64,000 nt of DNA from Escherichia coli phage vB_EcoM_Shy: the sequence record MT833282.1. One strand, given 5' to 3'. A program made the translations under genes and the position numbers. Numbering within the stretch: the first letter of the stretch is position 1; every line of letters begins with the position of its first letter. The notes below the pieces were generated by a model. It was not told where the DNA came from. It saw nothing but the letters and a program-made list of their open reading frames with translations, and ran no database searches. Below, piece by piece: positions 34,835 through 42,579 of this stretch.

Positions 34835-35021
34835 AATGACCTCAAAGTTATATTAAATTTTGTATTACATTGAGTATAAAAATAAGCTATAACACCTGAC
34901 TTGTCAACAGATTTTATAGCTTATTTGGCAGATTTTTTATAAGGCTACTGCCATCCTTCCATACCAAACCCTACCGAACAGAACCATGCTTTGCCATACT
35001 GGACAACACCTGACCAGACAT

Positions 35022-36794: not shown

Positions 36795-36822
36795 TGCTCA
36801 GTATACTCACCAAATTTTCTAT
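36795..36822 (-). promoter_or_regulatory. sigma70-type promoter on minus strand (TTGACA-16-TATACT)
   Basis: minus strand reads gttgacatagaaaatttggtgagtatact; would transcribe leftwards through region B into 36420. Confidence 0.45.
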
Positions 36823-36834
36823 GTCAACAACTTT

Positions 36835-37938
36835 TTATTCGTAGTCTCGAATAACTAACCCAACAGGGAACTGTAAAGAACCTTTACGAGTCATCTTCTG
36901 GAACTGAACCGTCAAAGGTTTCCCGATAAACTCTTCAGGATGTTCAGCAAGATACTGTTTCTTCTCATGAGTAGTCTTCCATGAGACATCTACAAAGACG
37001 TTAGGAAGAGTCTCTACAACGAACTTGCCATGACCACGCTTATCAGTCTTTACACCAGTCACTTTAAACTCTTCAGTGTGCATCTTCTTGTGCTTAATCA
37101 AGAAGTATGAACGGTGACAACACTCATAGAAGGAGTCTTCAGAGATTGAACGGTACATTGCACCTTCAAACTTAGCTTCAACCCACTTATCATGAGCTTC
37201 ATCAAACTCTTCCCAAGAATTTACACGACGAGACTTAACAGGGATAACTTTACAGCCATCTCTAAAGTCATTCAATGGTGAAGTCTCAATAATATCTCTA
37301 CGCTCAGGCCACGTCTTAGTACTGTCACAGATATCATACCAGTAAAACTTGAGCAAGTGTCTGTCAGGATTGTCTTCATTTTTAATCATAGAGACAATAT
37401 CTTCTAAGTCCCATCCATGAGCATAAATCTCACCATCAAACTCATCAACATCTTTGTGGAGCCTTAACATTGCCATAATGTCAGGTATTAGCTCAGTAGG
37501 GATTTTATAAACAGTATTCTCACGAGAGTATGCTGTAAATACACTACCAATGCTTAAGTGCCTTGAAATCCTACAACGGACACCATCAAGTTTCGGTTGA
37601 GCATCAGCAGGAAATTTCAAATACTTTGCATGGCTAACCTTTGCAGCATCATGAGCAAGCTGTACACCTACCTTCTCAGTGTTCTGTGCAGACTCTTTTG
37701 TGTAAGCATAACCTTTACGGTCAACCTGCTTTTTATACTTAGCAGCAACTTCAAAGAGAGCTTGCTGTTCAGCATTACGCTCATTCTTTTTACCGATGTT
37801 TTTAGGTTCTGCTGTATACTCTTCAAACATCATCTTGCCATTTTCTTTACCGTAGGTTGTAATAACTTTGTCACCTACAGCAACGCATGACCAGACGTTA
37901 AAAGAGCCGTCTTTATTTTGTTTGTACAGTATTGTCAT
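36835..37938 (-). CDS. ATP-dependent DNA ligase
   Basis: adenylation motif I KxDGxR (PKLDGVRCR); start trimmed to MTILYKQ with RBS agga. Confidence 0.75.
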   Translation of the reverse strand: MTILYKQNKDGSFNVWSCVAVGDKVITTYGKENGKMMFEEYTAEPKNIGKKNERNAEQQALFEVAAKYKKQVDRKGYAYTKESAQNTEKVGVQLAHDAAKVSHAKYLKFPADAQPKLDGVRCRISRHLSIGSVFTAYSRENTVYKIPTELIPDIMAMLRLHKDVDEFDGEIYAHGWDLEDIVSMIKNEDNPDRHLLKFYWYDICDSTKTWPERRDIIETSPLNDFRDGCKVIPVKSRRVNSWEEFDEAHDKWVEAKFEGAMYRSISEDSFYECCHRSYFLIKHKKMHTEEFKVTGVKTDKRGHGKFVVETLPNVFVDVSWKTTHEKKQYLAEHPEEFIGKPLTVQFQKMTRKGSLQFPVGLVIRDYE

Positions 37939-37939
37939 T

Positions 37940-38131
37940 TTATTCCTCTGAGTGATACCAAGTATTGCAAGCATTACATGCGTAAAGCTCTAAGTCATTT
38001 TTATCTGGTTTATGAAAACAGTTTGCTCCGCAGTGGCAACGAAACGGCTTTCCACCAACTGTCAGGATGAAGGATTGAACCTTTCCATCAGGAGTTCGTA
38101 CAGCATTTTTATGCTTATCTTCTTTACTCAT
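37940..38131 (-). CDS. small Cys-rich zinc-ribbon protein
   Basis: 63 aa; CHCGANC ... CNACN. Confidence 0.5.
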   Translation of the reverse strand: MSKEDKHKNAVRTPDGKVQSFILTVGGKPFRCHCGANCFHKPDKNDLELYACNACNTWYHSEE

Positions 38132-38291
38132 TTGTGCTCTTACCTTTGTCAGATTTCATATAGGACATGTTACTATTCCTTTTAATAAAATGTACAACGC
38201 ATTTTGGTGTATCTTTTGCATCTTTGATGTGCAACCTTTCGAAGCTGTGTACTGTGAAGATTGCATCTGTCATTGTTTGCTTAGTTTTCAT
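38124..38291 (-). CDS. hypothetical small protein (55 aa, below ORF-track cutoff)
   Basis: hand-translated MKTKQTMTDAIFTVHSFERLHIKDAKDTPKCVVHFIKRNSNMSYMKSDKGKSTNE; start/stop overlaps couple it to both neighbours. Confidence 0.35.
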   Translation of the reverse strand: MKTKQTMTDAIFTVHSFERLHIKDAKDTPKCVVHFIKRNSNMSYMKSDKGKSTNE

Positions 38292-38494
38292 TTTCTCTTA
38301 CCACCAATCTCTACGTCAATAACTTGAACATCACCAGCAACATCAAACTTATGAATGACACTTTCCACAGTGTAAGTCCAACCATCAATATGAACCAATT
38401 CACCTTCTCGTGGGACGATTGGGTTACGTTGAGCTACGGTTGTAGTGGAGTGAACAACATCATAACAGTAGATATAGTTTACTAAGGCTTCCAT
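38288..38494 (-). CDS. hypothetical small protein
   Basis: ORF-track ORF trimmed to MEALVNY start with RBS gagg, avoiding overlap with lipoprotein gene. Confidence 0.4.
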   Translation of the reverse strand: MEALVNYIYCYDVVHSTTTVAQRNPIVPREGELVHIDGWTYTVESVIHKFDVAGDVQVIDVEIGGKRK

Positions 38495-38504
38495 CTTGAA
38501 AACC

Positions 38505-38741
38505 TCACTCAATAACAGTAGTGTGTGATTGGCCATTTTTGCCATAGCTATAAGATGTTGTTGTTTGAGAATTTGGACATCTGACAACAACAATATCTCT
38601 GCTTATGGCATCACCATGTAACTTATAGACTTTGCAATCTTGCATCTCTGGTGGGAGGCTATAAGAAGCGTTTTTGTCCTCGTAAGAGGGATTACAGCCA
38701 GATAGAAAGATAACACTAAGCACAATTACTGCTTTCCACAT
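38505..38741 (-). CDS. putative lipoprotein
   Basis: signal peptide MWKAVIVLSVIFLSGC with lipobox L-S-G-C. Confidence 0.6.
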   Translation of the reverse strand: MWKAVIVLSVIFLSGCNPSYEDKNASYSLPPEMQDCKVYKLHGDAISRDIVVVRCPNSQTTTSYSYGKNGQSHTTVIE

Positions 38742-38927
38742 AATACTTCTCCTATTACTGTTCACGATGTTCTACTTCTCTGTACGTTCGTCGATAGTTT
38801 ATAATAAGCTGTGCTAACTCGTTGCTTTTAACATCTGAACGTAGAAGTTGCCAATCAAAACCTTTGCCGACTCTTCCATATAAACTAAAGAATTTTACTT
38901 TGCGTTTCATTTTGGTATCTCCAATAC

Positions 38928-39140
38928 TCAGATGTCAATGCTAATACGTTCACCTTTAAGGACTCCTGTACGGTCCCTTGCAATCTTACCGTCAACAATA
39001 AGAATATGCGCAGACCTTAAAGACTCACTATTAAAACCTTTTACGAACTTGCTGGGCATCACCACAATAAGCATCTCTTGAATCAGCTCTGGAGTATAGC
39101 AATTGTCGTGAAGTTGCTGAATAACGTCTGAAAGTGTCAT
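38928..39140 (-). CDS. hypothetical small protein, paralog of 39343-39561
   Basis: shares ...DGKIARDRTGVLKGERISID versus ...GGKIAKDKTGYLKGERVNIE. Confidence 0.5.
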   Translation of the reverse strand: MTLSDVIQQLHDNCYTPELIQEMLIVVMPSKFVKGFNSESLRSAHILIVDGKIARDRTGVLKGERISIDI

Positions 39141-39346
39141 TTTTGATGTCTCCAATACTCAATATCAATAAGTTCTTGTGCAATGCTTTTCAGATTACCT
39201 TTCAAGAAAACCTTCTCAGAACCTGAAAGAGATGAATTGTCAATTAGCCTGTTCATTCTCTCAAACAACTTCTGCTTACGATTCTTGATAGTTTCCTTTG
39301 AAGCACCTTTCATCATCGCTGCATGGGTTCTTCCACGGTGGCTCAT
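39137..39346 (-). CDS. hypothetical small basic protein
   Basis: 69-aa ORF between the two paralogs. Confidence 0.45.
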   Translation of the reverse strand: MSHRGRTHAAMMKGASKETIKNRKQKLFERMNRLIDNSSLSGSEKVFLKGNLKSIAQELIDIEYWRHQK

Positions 39347-39561
39347 AGTAAACTCTCAATATTTACACGCTCACCTTTTAAGTAGCCTGTCTTATCTTTT
39401 GCGATTTTACCTCCAGCAATAAAGATATCTACTCTACGTAGAACTTCAGGGTTTACCTTCAAATTCCTACAGCTACTACAAAGAACAATAAACATCCCTT
39501 CAATCTCTTTTTGAGAATAACCTGCACATTGCAACTGAACTTCAATCTCTGAAAGCGTCAT
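39343..39561 (-). CDS. hypothetical small protein, paralog of 38928-39140
   Basis: 72-aa ORF with conserved C-terminal motif. Confidence 0.5.
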   Translation of the reverse strand: MTLSEIEVQLQCAGYSQKEIEGMFIVLCSSCRNLKVNPEVLRRVDIFIAGGKIAKDKTGYLKGERVNIESLL

Positions 39562-39622
39562 GTGACCTCCTATACAAGATACAGTATAAGGTACTCTTCC
39601 ATGAGCACCTTGTCAATACTAA

Positions 39623-42322
39623 TTAGTGTACTTCAAGCCAGCTTTTACCAACCTTACCAGTACCTGTAACAAGTGTTTCTTTCTTAAGACCTAAGTTTTT
39701 AGAAGCTTGTCCATAATACCAGTCAGTAACTGCTTTCACATCTGCCGTCATACTCTCTGGACATTCCCAACTCGTCTCATCGTGATATGCGCAGAGCAAA
39801 CGAGCACCAATAGCTGGTTGACGACCATTTAACTTCATCAAACCTTCGTCAATCATACGACGACAAGCAAGGTTAATTGCCTCATTTTGAATCTGAGCCT
39901 CTGAACCCATCAAAAGATAGTTCAACAGTTTGTGTGGAGATTTACACCACAACCAAGCTCCAGCAACCCTTACAAAACCCCCTTTAGAGATTGCAGCAGT
40001 CTTACCAAACACCTCTTCAAGTGCCTTTTTAGTCGCTTTGTAGTCAGCTTCCAAGTCATCTAGCAGCTTCTTAATCTTAGGCAAACGGATAAAGTAAGTC
40101 TGTTTAGTCAGTGCACCTTCCTGAGTAGTTGCAGCTTTAATTGTCTTAGCAAACTTCTCATCACCTGCACCAAACAGTAGTGCATAGATACCATTCTTAG
40201 CTTTCTTACGACCCTTGCTAATCTCATGAAGAAGGTTCTCATCCTGAGTAGCTCGACAAGTCAAGATATCCTGCTCATCATTCAAGCTAAAGTAAATACT
40301 GTTCAGTGTGTGTGCATCAGTCCCTGAATAGACAACGTAAAGGTCATTCTCAGAGTCATAACGCAGATACTTGTCAACTTCTGGGTTAAGGTACTCATCA
40401 AAATGTTTGCAGTAATAGCGTCCATCTTCTTGACGAATAAACTCAATCTCTTCTTTACCTTGCGTTACCGCTTTGGTGAAGTCTTTGTCACCCATAAAGT
40501 TACAAAGGAGAACTAGCTGGGCTGAGTTCATGTCTACAGAGACAACGTTAGTACCTTCTTCACAAATCCACACTGCCCTCATTGGTTCCCCATAGACAGC
40601 AGCACCAGACGGTACGTTTACAATACCATATTGTGTCATACGTCCAGTTGAAGTACCAAACACCATTGCACCAGCACTAAGGCGACCATCAGGACGAATC
40701 TGGTTCAACCAACCTTTTTCATCATCCTTTGAGTTCTCAATAGTTCTGCGTCGGTGCATCAAAGTATAGTATTTAGCAATCTTCTGTCCAAGCTCACCTT
40801 CAATCGTATCATAAGATGATTCAGTAAGTTTTGGTGAAGTACGGATTAAGCAAGGCTCAAGCAAATCTGTGTACTTTTTCACAGACCAGTTATGCTCAAT
40901 GTACTGGACACCTTCGTGTTCAACATAACTCAAACCACATCGTTCAACCATCTCCTGCCACTTAGGATGCTTTGTAATCATCTTTTTGTTGTCTTTGAAA
41001 CGACAAACTTTGACAGGACGACCGTCAGAGTCTTTCTTGTAGTTCCAGTCATCTGGAATCCAACCAACTGATTTCAAGTAGTCTTTAACAACTGCTACCT
41101 GAGTCATACGAGAAACTTCGAACTCAATTGGTGTATATGGTGCATCAATCAAACCTGTGTAGCGACTTGACTCAAGCTCAAAGTGGTTAACGACATGGCT
41201 GTTATAGTACTTCACAGTTTTAACTGTTTTTACTGGCTTCCAGTCTTTGCACTTCTTACCAATCTTTGCATTCAACTCATTGCAAATTGCACGAGCATCC
41301 TTCATTGCTACAAAGCCTTCCTTGTACTCTTCACCAGTTACAGAGTTGGTTGGTGTATAGCAATTCCGCTTTTCAATGTTAAAAATCTTTGTAGTTGGCT
41401 TACCAAATGGCTTGATTTCGTATGTCTGCATTTCACCATTACGTACCTGCTGACGATACTTTGTCTTAGGGTACTTGGTAATTCTCTTCAGTCCATCTGC
41501 ATGACCGAATGCTTCAACATACTCATTCCAAGCTTTTGCAAATTCTTCTCCAGTGACTTTACCTTTGGTCTTAATAGTTGGTGGAAGGTGTGGTTCAACT
41601 TCTGAAGCAAGCTCATTAGTCAACTTGTCAAGTTCCTTTACATGGAACTCCATAAGCTCTTTATCAGCTTTCCAACCATTGATAGCCTGTTGACTCATCC
41701 AGAAAGATGTTTCTTTAGCTCGCATGTAGGTTTCATAAGTATCTACGCCACACTTCTTCAGCTTGAGGTATTCATTATCCAGTGCACGTTTAGTTTTGGC
41801 GTTAATACGGATATCTTCTACAACACGAGTGAAGATTTCTGCATTCCACACACCCCAATGTTCAATCTCTGGTTTACGGACACCAACACGAGCACCCCAT
41901 GCTGCCAATCCATGAGCACCTTTATAGCCCTTTGGAGTTGGTCTATCCATCCACTGAACACGAGACTGGATAAGAGAATCCTGAAAGAAATTACTCCACG
42001 GTTTACACTTTGGATTATCAAAGTTCCACAAATCAGGTGCAATGTGATTGAAAACCCACCAGTCATATCCTAGACCATTATGGATGCAAAGTCGTTTTGC
42101 CTTTAACGCAAACTCAACACCTTCACGCAAGCCACCCTTAATGTACTTGGTATACTTGTGACCGAGTATAGGCTCGTCTGTAAAGACCCATACAGGTGGC
42201 TCTTCATCGTCAGATTTATAATCTGCGAAAGCCATTACGTGCACTTTAGTGAACTCAAGGAGTAAACCATCAGTTTCTGTATCACCAACTAAATGTAAGT
42301 TTTTAAAATCTACGTTTTCCAT
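39623..42322 (-). CDS. DNA polymerase, family A, with N-terminal exonuclease region
   Basis: about 900 aa; Pol A motif C-like LLCAYHDE; N-terminal DTETDG acidic motif; start trimmed to MENVDF with RBS gagggag. Confidence 0.85.
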   Translation of the reverse strand: MENVDFKNLHLVGDTETDGLLLEFTKVHVMAFADYKSDDEEPPVWVFTDEPILGHKYTKYIKGGLREGVEFALKAKRLCIHNGLGYDWWVFNHIAPDLWNFDNPKCKPWSNFFQDSLIQSRVQWMDRPTPKGYKGAHGLAAWGARVGVRKPEIEHWGVWNAEIFTRVVEDIRINAKTKRALDNEYLKLKKCGVDTYETYMRAKETSFWMSQQAINGWKADKELMEFHVKELDKLTNELASEVEPHLPPTIKTKGKVTGEEFAKAWNEYVEAFGHADGLKRITKYPKTKYRQQVRNGEMQTYEIKPFGKPTTKIFNIEKRNCYTPTNSVTGEEYKEGFVAMKDARAICNELNAKIGKKCKDWKPVKTVKTVKYYNSHVVNHFELESSRYTGLIDAPYTPIEFEVSRMTQVAVVKDYLKSVGWIPDDWNYKKDSDGRPVKVCRFKDNKKMITKHPKWQEMVERCGLSYVEHEGVQYIEHNWSVKKYTDLLEPCLIRTSPKLTESSYDTIEGELGQKIAKYYTLMHRRRTIENSKDDEKGWLNQIRPDGRLSAGAMVFGTSTGRMTQYGIVNVPSGAAVYGEPMRAVWICEEGTNVVSVDMNSAQLVLLCNFMGDKDFTKAVTQGKEEIEFIRQEDGRYYCKHFDEYLNPEVDKYLRYDSENDLYVVYSGTDAHTLNSIYFSLNDEQDILTCRATQDENLLHEISKGRKKAKNGIYALLFGAGDEKFAKTIKAATTQEGALTKQTYFIRLPKIKKLLDDLEADYKATKKALEEVFGKTAAISKGGFVRVAGAWLWCKSPHKLLNYLLMGSEAQIQNEAINLACRRMIDEGLMKLNGRQPAIGARLLCAYHDETSWECPESMTADVKAVTDWYYGQASKNLGLKKETLVTGTGKVGKSWLEVH

Positions 42323-42579
42323 TTTTACTCCCTCTAAAATCATTAACCTCATACATTACTGCAAAAAATTATAAAAAGCAAGTTGACAATGTACTTGACA
42401 AGGTGTTAATCTTTGCGAAGTGGGTTTTTACTTAAAAGGTTACTTAACAGTTTAACTATACAGATACTTTAAAACTCTTAAAAGATTATTTAATAGCTTT
42501 TAAAAAGCTTTAAAGTATAACGTATAGAATACGTTAAGATAAAAGATTAAAACTTAATAGTTACTTAAAAGAGGCTTAC

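Follow-up and report, generated by a model that had tools for sequence, protein, structure and literature searches.

In the lytic phage T7, the family-A DNA polymerase gene (gene 5) is followed by the short, non-essential ORFs gp5.5, gp5.7 and gp5.9. The two related genes described here, called A and B, resemble these by positional analogy, being small genes after a family-A polymerase gene. Their closest described relatives are the members of PHROG 4230, namely Felix O1 ORF93/Felix01p173, JH2_060/JH2_062, Shigella phage Sf19 gp75 and Citrobacter phage Moogle gp37; A and B match this group end to end and at equal length, occupy the same position between polymerase and ligase, and are members of it. 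The gene between them, M, is likewise similar end to end to the members of PHROG 5180, which include Felix O1 ORF94/Felix01p174 and Erwinia phage phiEa21-4 gp83. PHROG 5180 is wider than the A/B family and is found in T4-like Karamvirus and Aeromonas phages away from A/B-type genes. No description of the two-copy arrangement of PHROG 4230 was found in the literature searched, nor was functional work on A, B or M.

Matching of the ORF numbering to sequence identified Felix O1 ORF93 as the A ortholog and ORF94 as M. The ORF93 transcript has been detected by RT-PCR with a maximum at 25 min, and ORF96 (polymerase) and ORF88 (ligase) have the same 25-min maximum (Whichard et al., PMC3185647 Table 3). 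Given this shared timing, the 'early region' in which the sequence-only reading had placed the genes is roughly right, with the correction that they are replication-module genes and that the 25-min maximum of Felix O1 ORF93 is a middle peak.

Gene order between polymerase and ligase

The window, the whole 64,000-nt stretch of Escherichia coli phage vB_EcoM_Shy (MT833282.1) that was analysed, is Felixounavirus DNA with 98.7% identity to Escherichia phage SME50. The region matched 252 phage records, and Felix O1-like myoviruses (Felixounavirus and its relatives) make up nearly all of these. B, M and A, like the polymerase and ligase genes on either side of them and the other genes listed here, are encoded by the minus strand. 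First comes the gene for the family-A DNA polymerase (39623-42352), and after it a 61-nt spacer (39562-39622) that runs from the polymerase stop to the start of B (39343-39561; 72 aa; PHROG 4230), the promoter-proximal gene. M (39137-39346; 69 aa; PHROG 5180; three predicted helices) comes next and then, downstream of M, A (38928-39140; 70 aa; PHROG 4230), present here as the 'A1' allele ending in ...ISIDI*. On the 3' side of A there follow, in order, a 51-aa gene (g51), a gene for a small predicted lipoprotein, a 68-aa gene, a 63-aa gene and the ATP-dependent DNA ligase gene (36835-37974).

The TGA stop of B overlaps the ATG of M, and the TGA stop of M overlaps the ATG of A (ATGA in each case). 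A and B both start with ATG; a longer A of 75 aa from a TTG start is possible, and the SME50 annotation uses the ATG at 39140. M is a small basic protein of pI 10.3, with 15 K+R against 7 D+E, so the description of A and B as flanking such a protein was correct.

The gene two places downstream of A (38505-38741, minus strand; PHROG 902), within the replication module, encodes the predicted lipoprotein, which has a signal peptide and a lipobox (..VIFLSGC) and which we take to recall, in position and type, the superinfection-exclusion lipoproteins of phages. The 63-aa protein immediately upstream of ligase (37940-38131, minus strand) has a four-cysteine pattern, CHC...C....C..C, that is typical of a zinc ribbon, and most relatives have kept it, even the distant contig L033.

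A conserved, promoter-like spacer

On the minus strand, the 61-nt spacer contains TTGACA (39611-39616), an inverted repeat GGTGCTC/GAGTACC (39603-39609 and 39590-39596), TATACT (39583-39588) and a Shine-Dalgarno sequence GGAGG (39566-39570). TTGACA is thus separated from TATACT by 22 nt that hold the hairpin-like sequence GGTGCTC-ATGGAA-GAGTACC. The spacer hardly varies among Felixounavirus, Mooglevirus and Suspvirus and is, in a comparison of four genera, more conserved than the adjoining coding DNA. Distant relatives have at the same site a canonical TTGACA-N16-TATAAT with a short hairpin (loop GGAAG) between the two hexamers; the equivalent spacers lie at 4690-4790 in contig L028, 500-580 in L032 and 236-316 in L033. 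From these sequence features, the spacer may be a regulated promoter. An Rfam scan of 38000-40000 gave only a below-threshold miRNA match.

The 22-nt spacing between TTGACA and TATACT is too long for a plain sigma-70 promoter, unless TACCTT, at 17 nt, is the -10 element. Two further TTGACA...TATACT elements are present on the same strand in the replication module, at 34873-34907 (23-nt spacer) and 36800-36827 (16-nt spacer). Together with the element at 39583-39616 this makes three matches, against 0.23 expected by chance.

A and B are full-length paralogs

A and B are 45% identical over 69 residues in a gapless alignment (BLASTP, E=2e-17). The Smith-Waterman score of the whole proteins is 126, compared with 22.5 ± 4.2 (maximum 46) for 2000 shuffles, giving z=24.6. 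The sequence-only reading had rested on a motif shared by the C-terminal parts of the two ORFs, which is indeed present (DGKIARDRTGVLKGERISID in A and GGKIAKDKTGYLKGERVNIE in B). The similarity extends over the full length, however, and the motif is its strongest part: the C-terminal part alone gave z=16.5, and the N-terminal 44 residues alone z=7.1. Since the whole-protein value is so high and both halves are significant, the similarity is far above what is expected at random for such proteins. Both proteins also fit the phrog_4230 profile end to end, A with E 6.2e-42 (residues 1-69 on positions 1-69 of 72) and B with E 7.4e-37 (residues 1-72 on positions 1-72 of 72). A family HMM found exactly two copies in the 64-kb window. 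Thus, A and B are true full-length paralogs of one uncharacterised family.

The duplication is old and the genes are conserved

The sequence-only reading held the pair to be a recent local duplication of the kind seen in fast-evolving loci for host takeover or anti-defence. In a codon alignment, A and B have a nucleotide identity of 54% and a third-position identity of 43.5%, with dN=0.58 and a saturated dS of 1.6. With dS near 1.6 and nucleotide identity of only 54%, the A/B duplication must be old. Orthologs of each copy are found in other genera, those of B in Mooglevirus at 91% nucleotide identity and those of A in Suspvirus at 88%. A neighbour-joining tree of 17 members separated an A clade, which includes the type found in L021, from a B clade, which includes several metagenomic types and L033. 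Members from L028 and L032 were placed between the two clades in this tree, whose resolution is low. Even so, A and B diverge in it no less deeply than the lineages do from one another. Neither of the marks of a recent tandem duplicate, a low dS and coalescence within the genus, was found for A and B. What stands of the earlier claim is that two paralogs share one locus, and local duplication has some physical support from a repeat of the 3' end of M (below); it was not recent.

A and B gave dN/dS values of 0.12 and 0.11, and M a value of 0.07, in estimates made with orthologs from 20-odd related loci. All three genes are under purifying selection and none is fast-evolving, contrary to the earlier reading.

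Distribution and gene-content turnover across relatives

A tblastn census over 50,697 phage records identified ∼254 that carry the family. Most have A only (∼187, ∼74%), while B only (∼35, ∼14%) and both copies (∼30-34, ∼13%) are less common. A orthologs, with 83-100% amino acid identity, were found in ∼217 phage records; B orthologs, with 72-92% amino acid identity, occur at the same position in Mooglevirus and some Felixounavirus. Intact M (at least 60% identity) is present in ∼206 records and is 100% identical at the amino acid level in many, leaving ∼48 of the ∼254 family-carrying records without intact M.

Several arrangements were seen. The order pol-B-M-A of the window is shared by SME50 and UAB_Phi87. 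In L008, L009, L011 and L014 the order is pol-M-A; the 61-nt spacer is again present, and M begins at the very point at which B begins in the window. Felix O1 and many others have pol-HNH-M-A. The Mooglevirus phages Sf19, KMM4 and Moogle lack A and have pol-B-M followed by another gene, and Suspvirus SUSP2 lacks M and has pol-HNH-A. In L021 a third sequence type, nearer to A, occupies the B slot. As to the presence or absence of the genes across related phages, which had been proposed as a check on the duplication, B is variable, and A-only, B-only and two-copy states all exist.

L014 lacks B, yet its M, g51, lipoprotein gene and 3' end of the polymerase gene are 98-99% identical in nucleotide sequence to those of the window, so that B is a presence/absence polymorphism among close relatives. 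The window and Sf19 copies of B are 91% identical in nucleotide sequence, compared with 87-88% for the flanking polymerase and M genes. Genomes with and without B differ in the 4 nt before the start codon and, over the final ∼25 nt of the spacer, in linked SNPs. These linked differences give the two states the appearance of haplotypes that were exchanged, not of deletions arising anew each time, and they speak against a simple ATGA-microhomology deletion, which was considered as the source of the B-less genomes. The pattern suggests allele-like exchange by recombination between the states with and without B. Overall, the locus has a high turnover of gene content, comprising presence or absence of B, HNH insertions and alternative downstream cassettes.

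In many relatives an HNH-AP2 homing endonuclease gene is inserted exactly between the polymerase stop and the conserved spacer. Examples are L002 1755-2295 (Felix O1 ORF95), L010, L020, L021 and L005; there is no such gene in the window. Whether it is inserted does not depend on B, since in L020 and L021 the HNH gene coexists with a family member that occupies the B slot.

When 1.84 billion representative proteins were searched with a profile, only 12 clusters of the A/B family were returned, and the family is therefore very narrow. Deep synteny was read from contigs encoding three of the most divergent members. L028 has the order polymerase, 75-aa gene, family member, ligase; L032 has the polymerase end, an 83-aa gene, the family member, two small genes and ligase; and L033, in which only the end of the polymerase gene is present, has a spacer and then the family member. 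Thus, the seat of the family downstream of the polymerase and behind a promoter-like spacer has been kept far beyond the genus. Divergent lineages usually have a single family copy near the promoter, and for this reason we regard the B slot as ancestral.

A repeat of the 3' end of M and the origin of the two slots

The 3' end of M (39137-39169, minus strand; ATTGATATTGAGTATTGGAGACATCAAAAATGA) is one copy of a 33-nt direct repeat. The other copy (38907-38939, minus strand; ATTGACATCTGAGTATTGGAGATACCAAAATGA) covers the last three codons and stop of A, the spacer between A and g51, and the start of g51. The copies differ by a 1-nt indel, which in the second copy creates the stop codon of A. The 16-nt core of the repeat has two matches in the 64-kb window, both exact, where 0.11 would be expected with up to two mismatches permitted.

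Several loci carry the A1 allele (...ISIDI*), as do SUSP2 and pEC-M719-6WT.1; in these two phages the M-3' relic follows A although M is missing or truncated. The A2 allele of Felix O1 (...IDILELL*) ends like B (...IESLL*) and has an ATGA overlap with the next gene; it shares the 9-mer ATTGACATT with M.

The 3' end of M recurs at several cassette junctions in the Felix O1-like group. In Escherichia phage pEC-M719-6WT.1 (L031), positions 2028-2775 are a patchwork of spacer, A, a short M-3' relic and g51, continuing with part of a gene resembling Mooglevirus gp73, a relic of 20 M codons and another cassette.

On the simplest readings of these sequences, the repeat at the 3' end of A marks either the recombination of cassettes or the duplication, long ago, of two genes together. 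In the latter case, a unit consisting of a family member and M may have been duplicated in tandem and its second M then lost by deletion. Alternatively, repeated recombination at the 3' end of M may have supplied a ribosome-binding site and start context to whichever gene came next. The promoter-proximal slot, here filled by B, looks ancestral, and the copy downstream of M (A) would have been derived from it long ago; this direction is taken from synteny and from the low-resolution tree of 70 residues. A picture identical to that left by duplication would result if one copy had been acquired horizontally from a diverged relative.

Predicted fold and family relationships

An AlphaFold2 model of A, made with a 15-sequence family alignment, has a mean pLDDT of 93.7 and a pTM of 0.79. 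The predicted elements are helices at 3-12 and 17-21, a strand at 25-28, a helix at 38-43 and a hairpin at 46-49/52-56, after which comes the invariant segment D56-x-T-G-x-L-K-G-E. The model predicts a small alpha/beta fold that has no solved neighbour. A Foldseek search of BFVD found resemblance to uncharacterised proteins of phiEco32 (73 aa, TM 0.64) and EP335. In these phiEco32-type podovirus proteins (UniProt B0FIR2, probably phi32_100, and EP335 A0A2Z3DNU6) the same fold is predicted (Foldseek probability 0.99-1.00, TM 0.60-0.64), and they have the motif h-L-I-I-D-G-x-h-h-K-x-R-x-G in common with the A/B family. The sequence similarity, however, is marginal: the family HMM picked phi32_100, which ends in ...HYLIIDGVLVKSRHGW, with E 0.036 among 758 ORFs of the phiEco32 genome. 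Their genes also differ in lying in an early gene block by a putative transcription regulator.

M belongs to PHROG 5180 (E 2.3e-46, residues 1-69 on positions 1-69 of 69). It is predicted to form three helices (pLDDT 85.5), and its structural neighbours are generic helical proteins only. Its N-terminus, MSHRGRTH..MM.G.S.ETIKNRK, is almost invariant; a NUMOD3-like reading of this segment was rejected, there being no such Pfam match. Erwinia Kolesnikvirus, T4-like Karamvirus and Aeromonas phages have homologs of M with 50-59% identity, which lie directly downstream of small two-TM membrane proteins and not of A/B-type genes (L026 3001-3252; L027 3980-4228).

Pfam, NCBIfam (above curated cut-offs), PADLOC and the PDB gave no match for A, B or M. 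In PADLOC, which holds defence rather than anti-defence proteins, A and B had no match at E≤1, and M had a single local match, to 'Orf5' (13.9 bits, E 0.0036). Neither Walker A/B motifs nor a significant structural or sequence match pointed to an ATPase core of the RecA/DnaB type. These searches of Pfam, NCBIfam, PADLOC and the PDB thus gave nothing in favour of a host-takeover or anti-defence role.

Similarity of A-type proteins to WaaK

WaaK, the LPS N-acetylglucosaminyltransferase, attaches to the LPS core the GlcNAc that serves Felix O1 as receptor. LPS has been described as the receptor of Felix O1 (PMC12048535, citing Hudson 1978), and WaaK as needed for O-antigen ligation (PMC12048535). 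The only NCBIfam match of A below E=0.05 was to the WaaK family NF012028, at 19.2 bits against a curated cut-off of 618 and covering profile positions 124-170 of 380. All six A-type sequences matched NF012028 (E 5e-4 to 8e-5), whereas none of the nine other family sequences in the same alignment, B-type and related metagenomic types, did so. Residues 4-49 of A are 30% identical over 46 aa to residues 122-166 of WaaK of the E. coli R2 core (L035 1261-2403), with a pairwise BLASTP E of 7e-6. Smith-Waterman comparison of A-type proteins with WaaK gave z values of 5.5-10.5 against shuffles, while B and all other family members scored at background. No comparable score was obtained with 13 other waa-locus proteins. 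The family profile gave an hhalign probability of 8.6% with WaaK, and a blastn search with gene A found no match in 5,426 E. coli genomes.

What A shares with WaaK, a GT4/GT-B enzyme, is thus a local beta-alpha-beta segment of 46 aa. A differs in having 70 rather than 380 aa, no second Rossmann domain and no catalytic motifs. GT4/GT-B enzymes have two Rossmann-like domains in ∼350-400 aa and a catalytic C-terminal domain; A shows neither, nor a match above the cut-off, and at 70 aa it cannot be an active GT-B enzyme.

Function and alternative explanations

Taken as a whole, the observations are probably best explained by A and B being ancient PHROG 4230 paralogs that are retained separately as cassettes of the replication operon and that act as dispensable binding proteins. 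The family, of ∼70-aa alpha/beta proteins, would be restricted to Felix O1-like (Ounavirinae-type) phages and would have its home in an operon extending from the promoter-like post-polymerase spacer to the DNA ligase gene. Its two slots appear to hold independently retained cassettes, with A only in most Felixounaviruses, B only in Moogleviruses and both in a minority. B, M and A would be co-translated by way of the ATGA overlaps, and the natural single-copy genomes suggest that each copy is individually dispensable. We infer that A and B are non-enzymatic and contact a partner through the invariant C-terminal D56-x-T-G-x-L-K-G-E segment, the partner being most plausibly a DNA replication or repair component or a host factor. 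The two copies may be partly redundant or partner-specialised, and M would be an independent, more widespread small basic protein and not an obligate partner. The grounds for binding are small size, absent catalytic signatures, a conserved exposed motif and the gene neighbourhood, and a role as a dispensable protein-binding accessory factor is accordingly put forward as a tentative best guess. Against this explanation we count the phiEco32 structural relative, which is found among early genes and not beside replication genes.

It is rather unlikely that B, M and A instead form one functional module, either a hetero-oligomer in which M is bracketed by related subunits or a regulator with two effectors, the stoichiometry being kept by translational coupling. 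Such a module would fit the ATGA overlaps at both junctions, the lack of a strong Shine-Dalgarno sequence for M when B is present, and the finding that in Felixounavirus and Mooglevirus most genomes have one or more family members next to M. However, the three genes do not co-occur obligately across genomes: B is optional, M is found behind small membrane proteins, with no family member, in Erwinia Kolesnikvirus and T4-like Karamvirus, and the family exists without M in SUSP2, pEC-M719-6WT.1, L028, L032 and L033, with about a fifth of the family-carrying records having no intact M. M and the family are thus separable, which argues against an obligate three-part module. The view from which the analysis started, a recent tandem duplication with fast arms-race divergence at a hot spot for host takeover or anti-defence, we judge improbable. 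It draws on the plasticity of the locus, with B variable among near-identical genomes, HNH insertions and alternating downstream cassettes, and by analogy on T7, where the small orphan genes downstream of the polymerase are host-directed. Its 'recent' and 'fast' parts are nevertheless contradicted by the saturated dS and low nucleotide identity of the pair, by the orthologs of each copy in different genera and by dN/dS values of ∼0.1, and Pfam, NCBIfam and PADLOC lend it no support. The ORFs might be taken for decaying pseudogenes or chance reading frames within a non-coding spacer, given their shortness, lack of annotated function and frequent labelling as hypothetical. This idea is refuted by purifying selection on all three, intact orthologs in >250 genomes, the confident fold prediction for A, the tight spacing and apparent translational coupling, and the RT-PCR detection of the Felix O1 ORF93 transcript (PMC3185647).

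The similarity to WaaK raises a more specific alternative, in which A-type proteins are derived from, or mimic, a segment of host WaaK and A interferes with completion of the LPS core. The match of all six A-type sequences to NF012028, the local identity and z values that other waa-locus proteins do not approach, and the use of LPS as the Felix O1 receptor (PMC12048535) all agree with it. Nevertheless, it seems very improbable to us: the similarity is confined to the A clade, its significance is borderline after multiple testing, the first helix of A is aligned to a stretch of WaaK that is expected to be a strand, and the low hhalign probability, the bit score far under the cut-off and the lack of a nucleotide match in E. 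coli genomes weigh further against it. The fuller version, in which A is an exapted WaaK-segment mimic acting on LPS core completion or O-antigen ligation while B keeps an ancestral, different partner, is an equally long shot. If it were true, such a mimic could, for example, keep infected cells or debris from being bound by progeny phage or by superinfecting phage.

Implications for Felix O1-like phages

The finding on A and B is ordinary in kind: they are real paralogs of ancient origin, situated where the replication module has an accessory stretch prone to recombination, and their family is already catalogued (PHROG 4230) and uncharacterised. 'Hypothetical proteins' annotated in >250 Felix O1-like genomes can now be recognised as ancient paralogs of one orphan family, which is mostly a matter of housekeeping; it has been mapped which genomes hold which copy, and the idea of a recent, fast-evolving duplication has been corrected. 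Broader interest would follow only if the low-probability WaaK-mimic reading were true. The M-3' repeat at cassette junctions provides a concrete example of the reshuffling of small-gene arrays in Felix O1-like phages. Since Felixounaviruses have wide use in typing, biocontrol and therapy directed at Salmonella and E. coli, knowledge of their dispensable small-gene cassettes aids genome engineering. With a confidently predicted fold that has no solved relative and a conserved seat between polymerase and ligase, the family is a cheap target for pull-down and knockout experiments.
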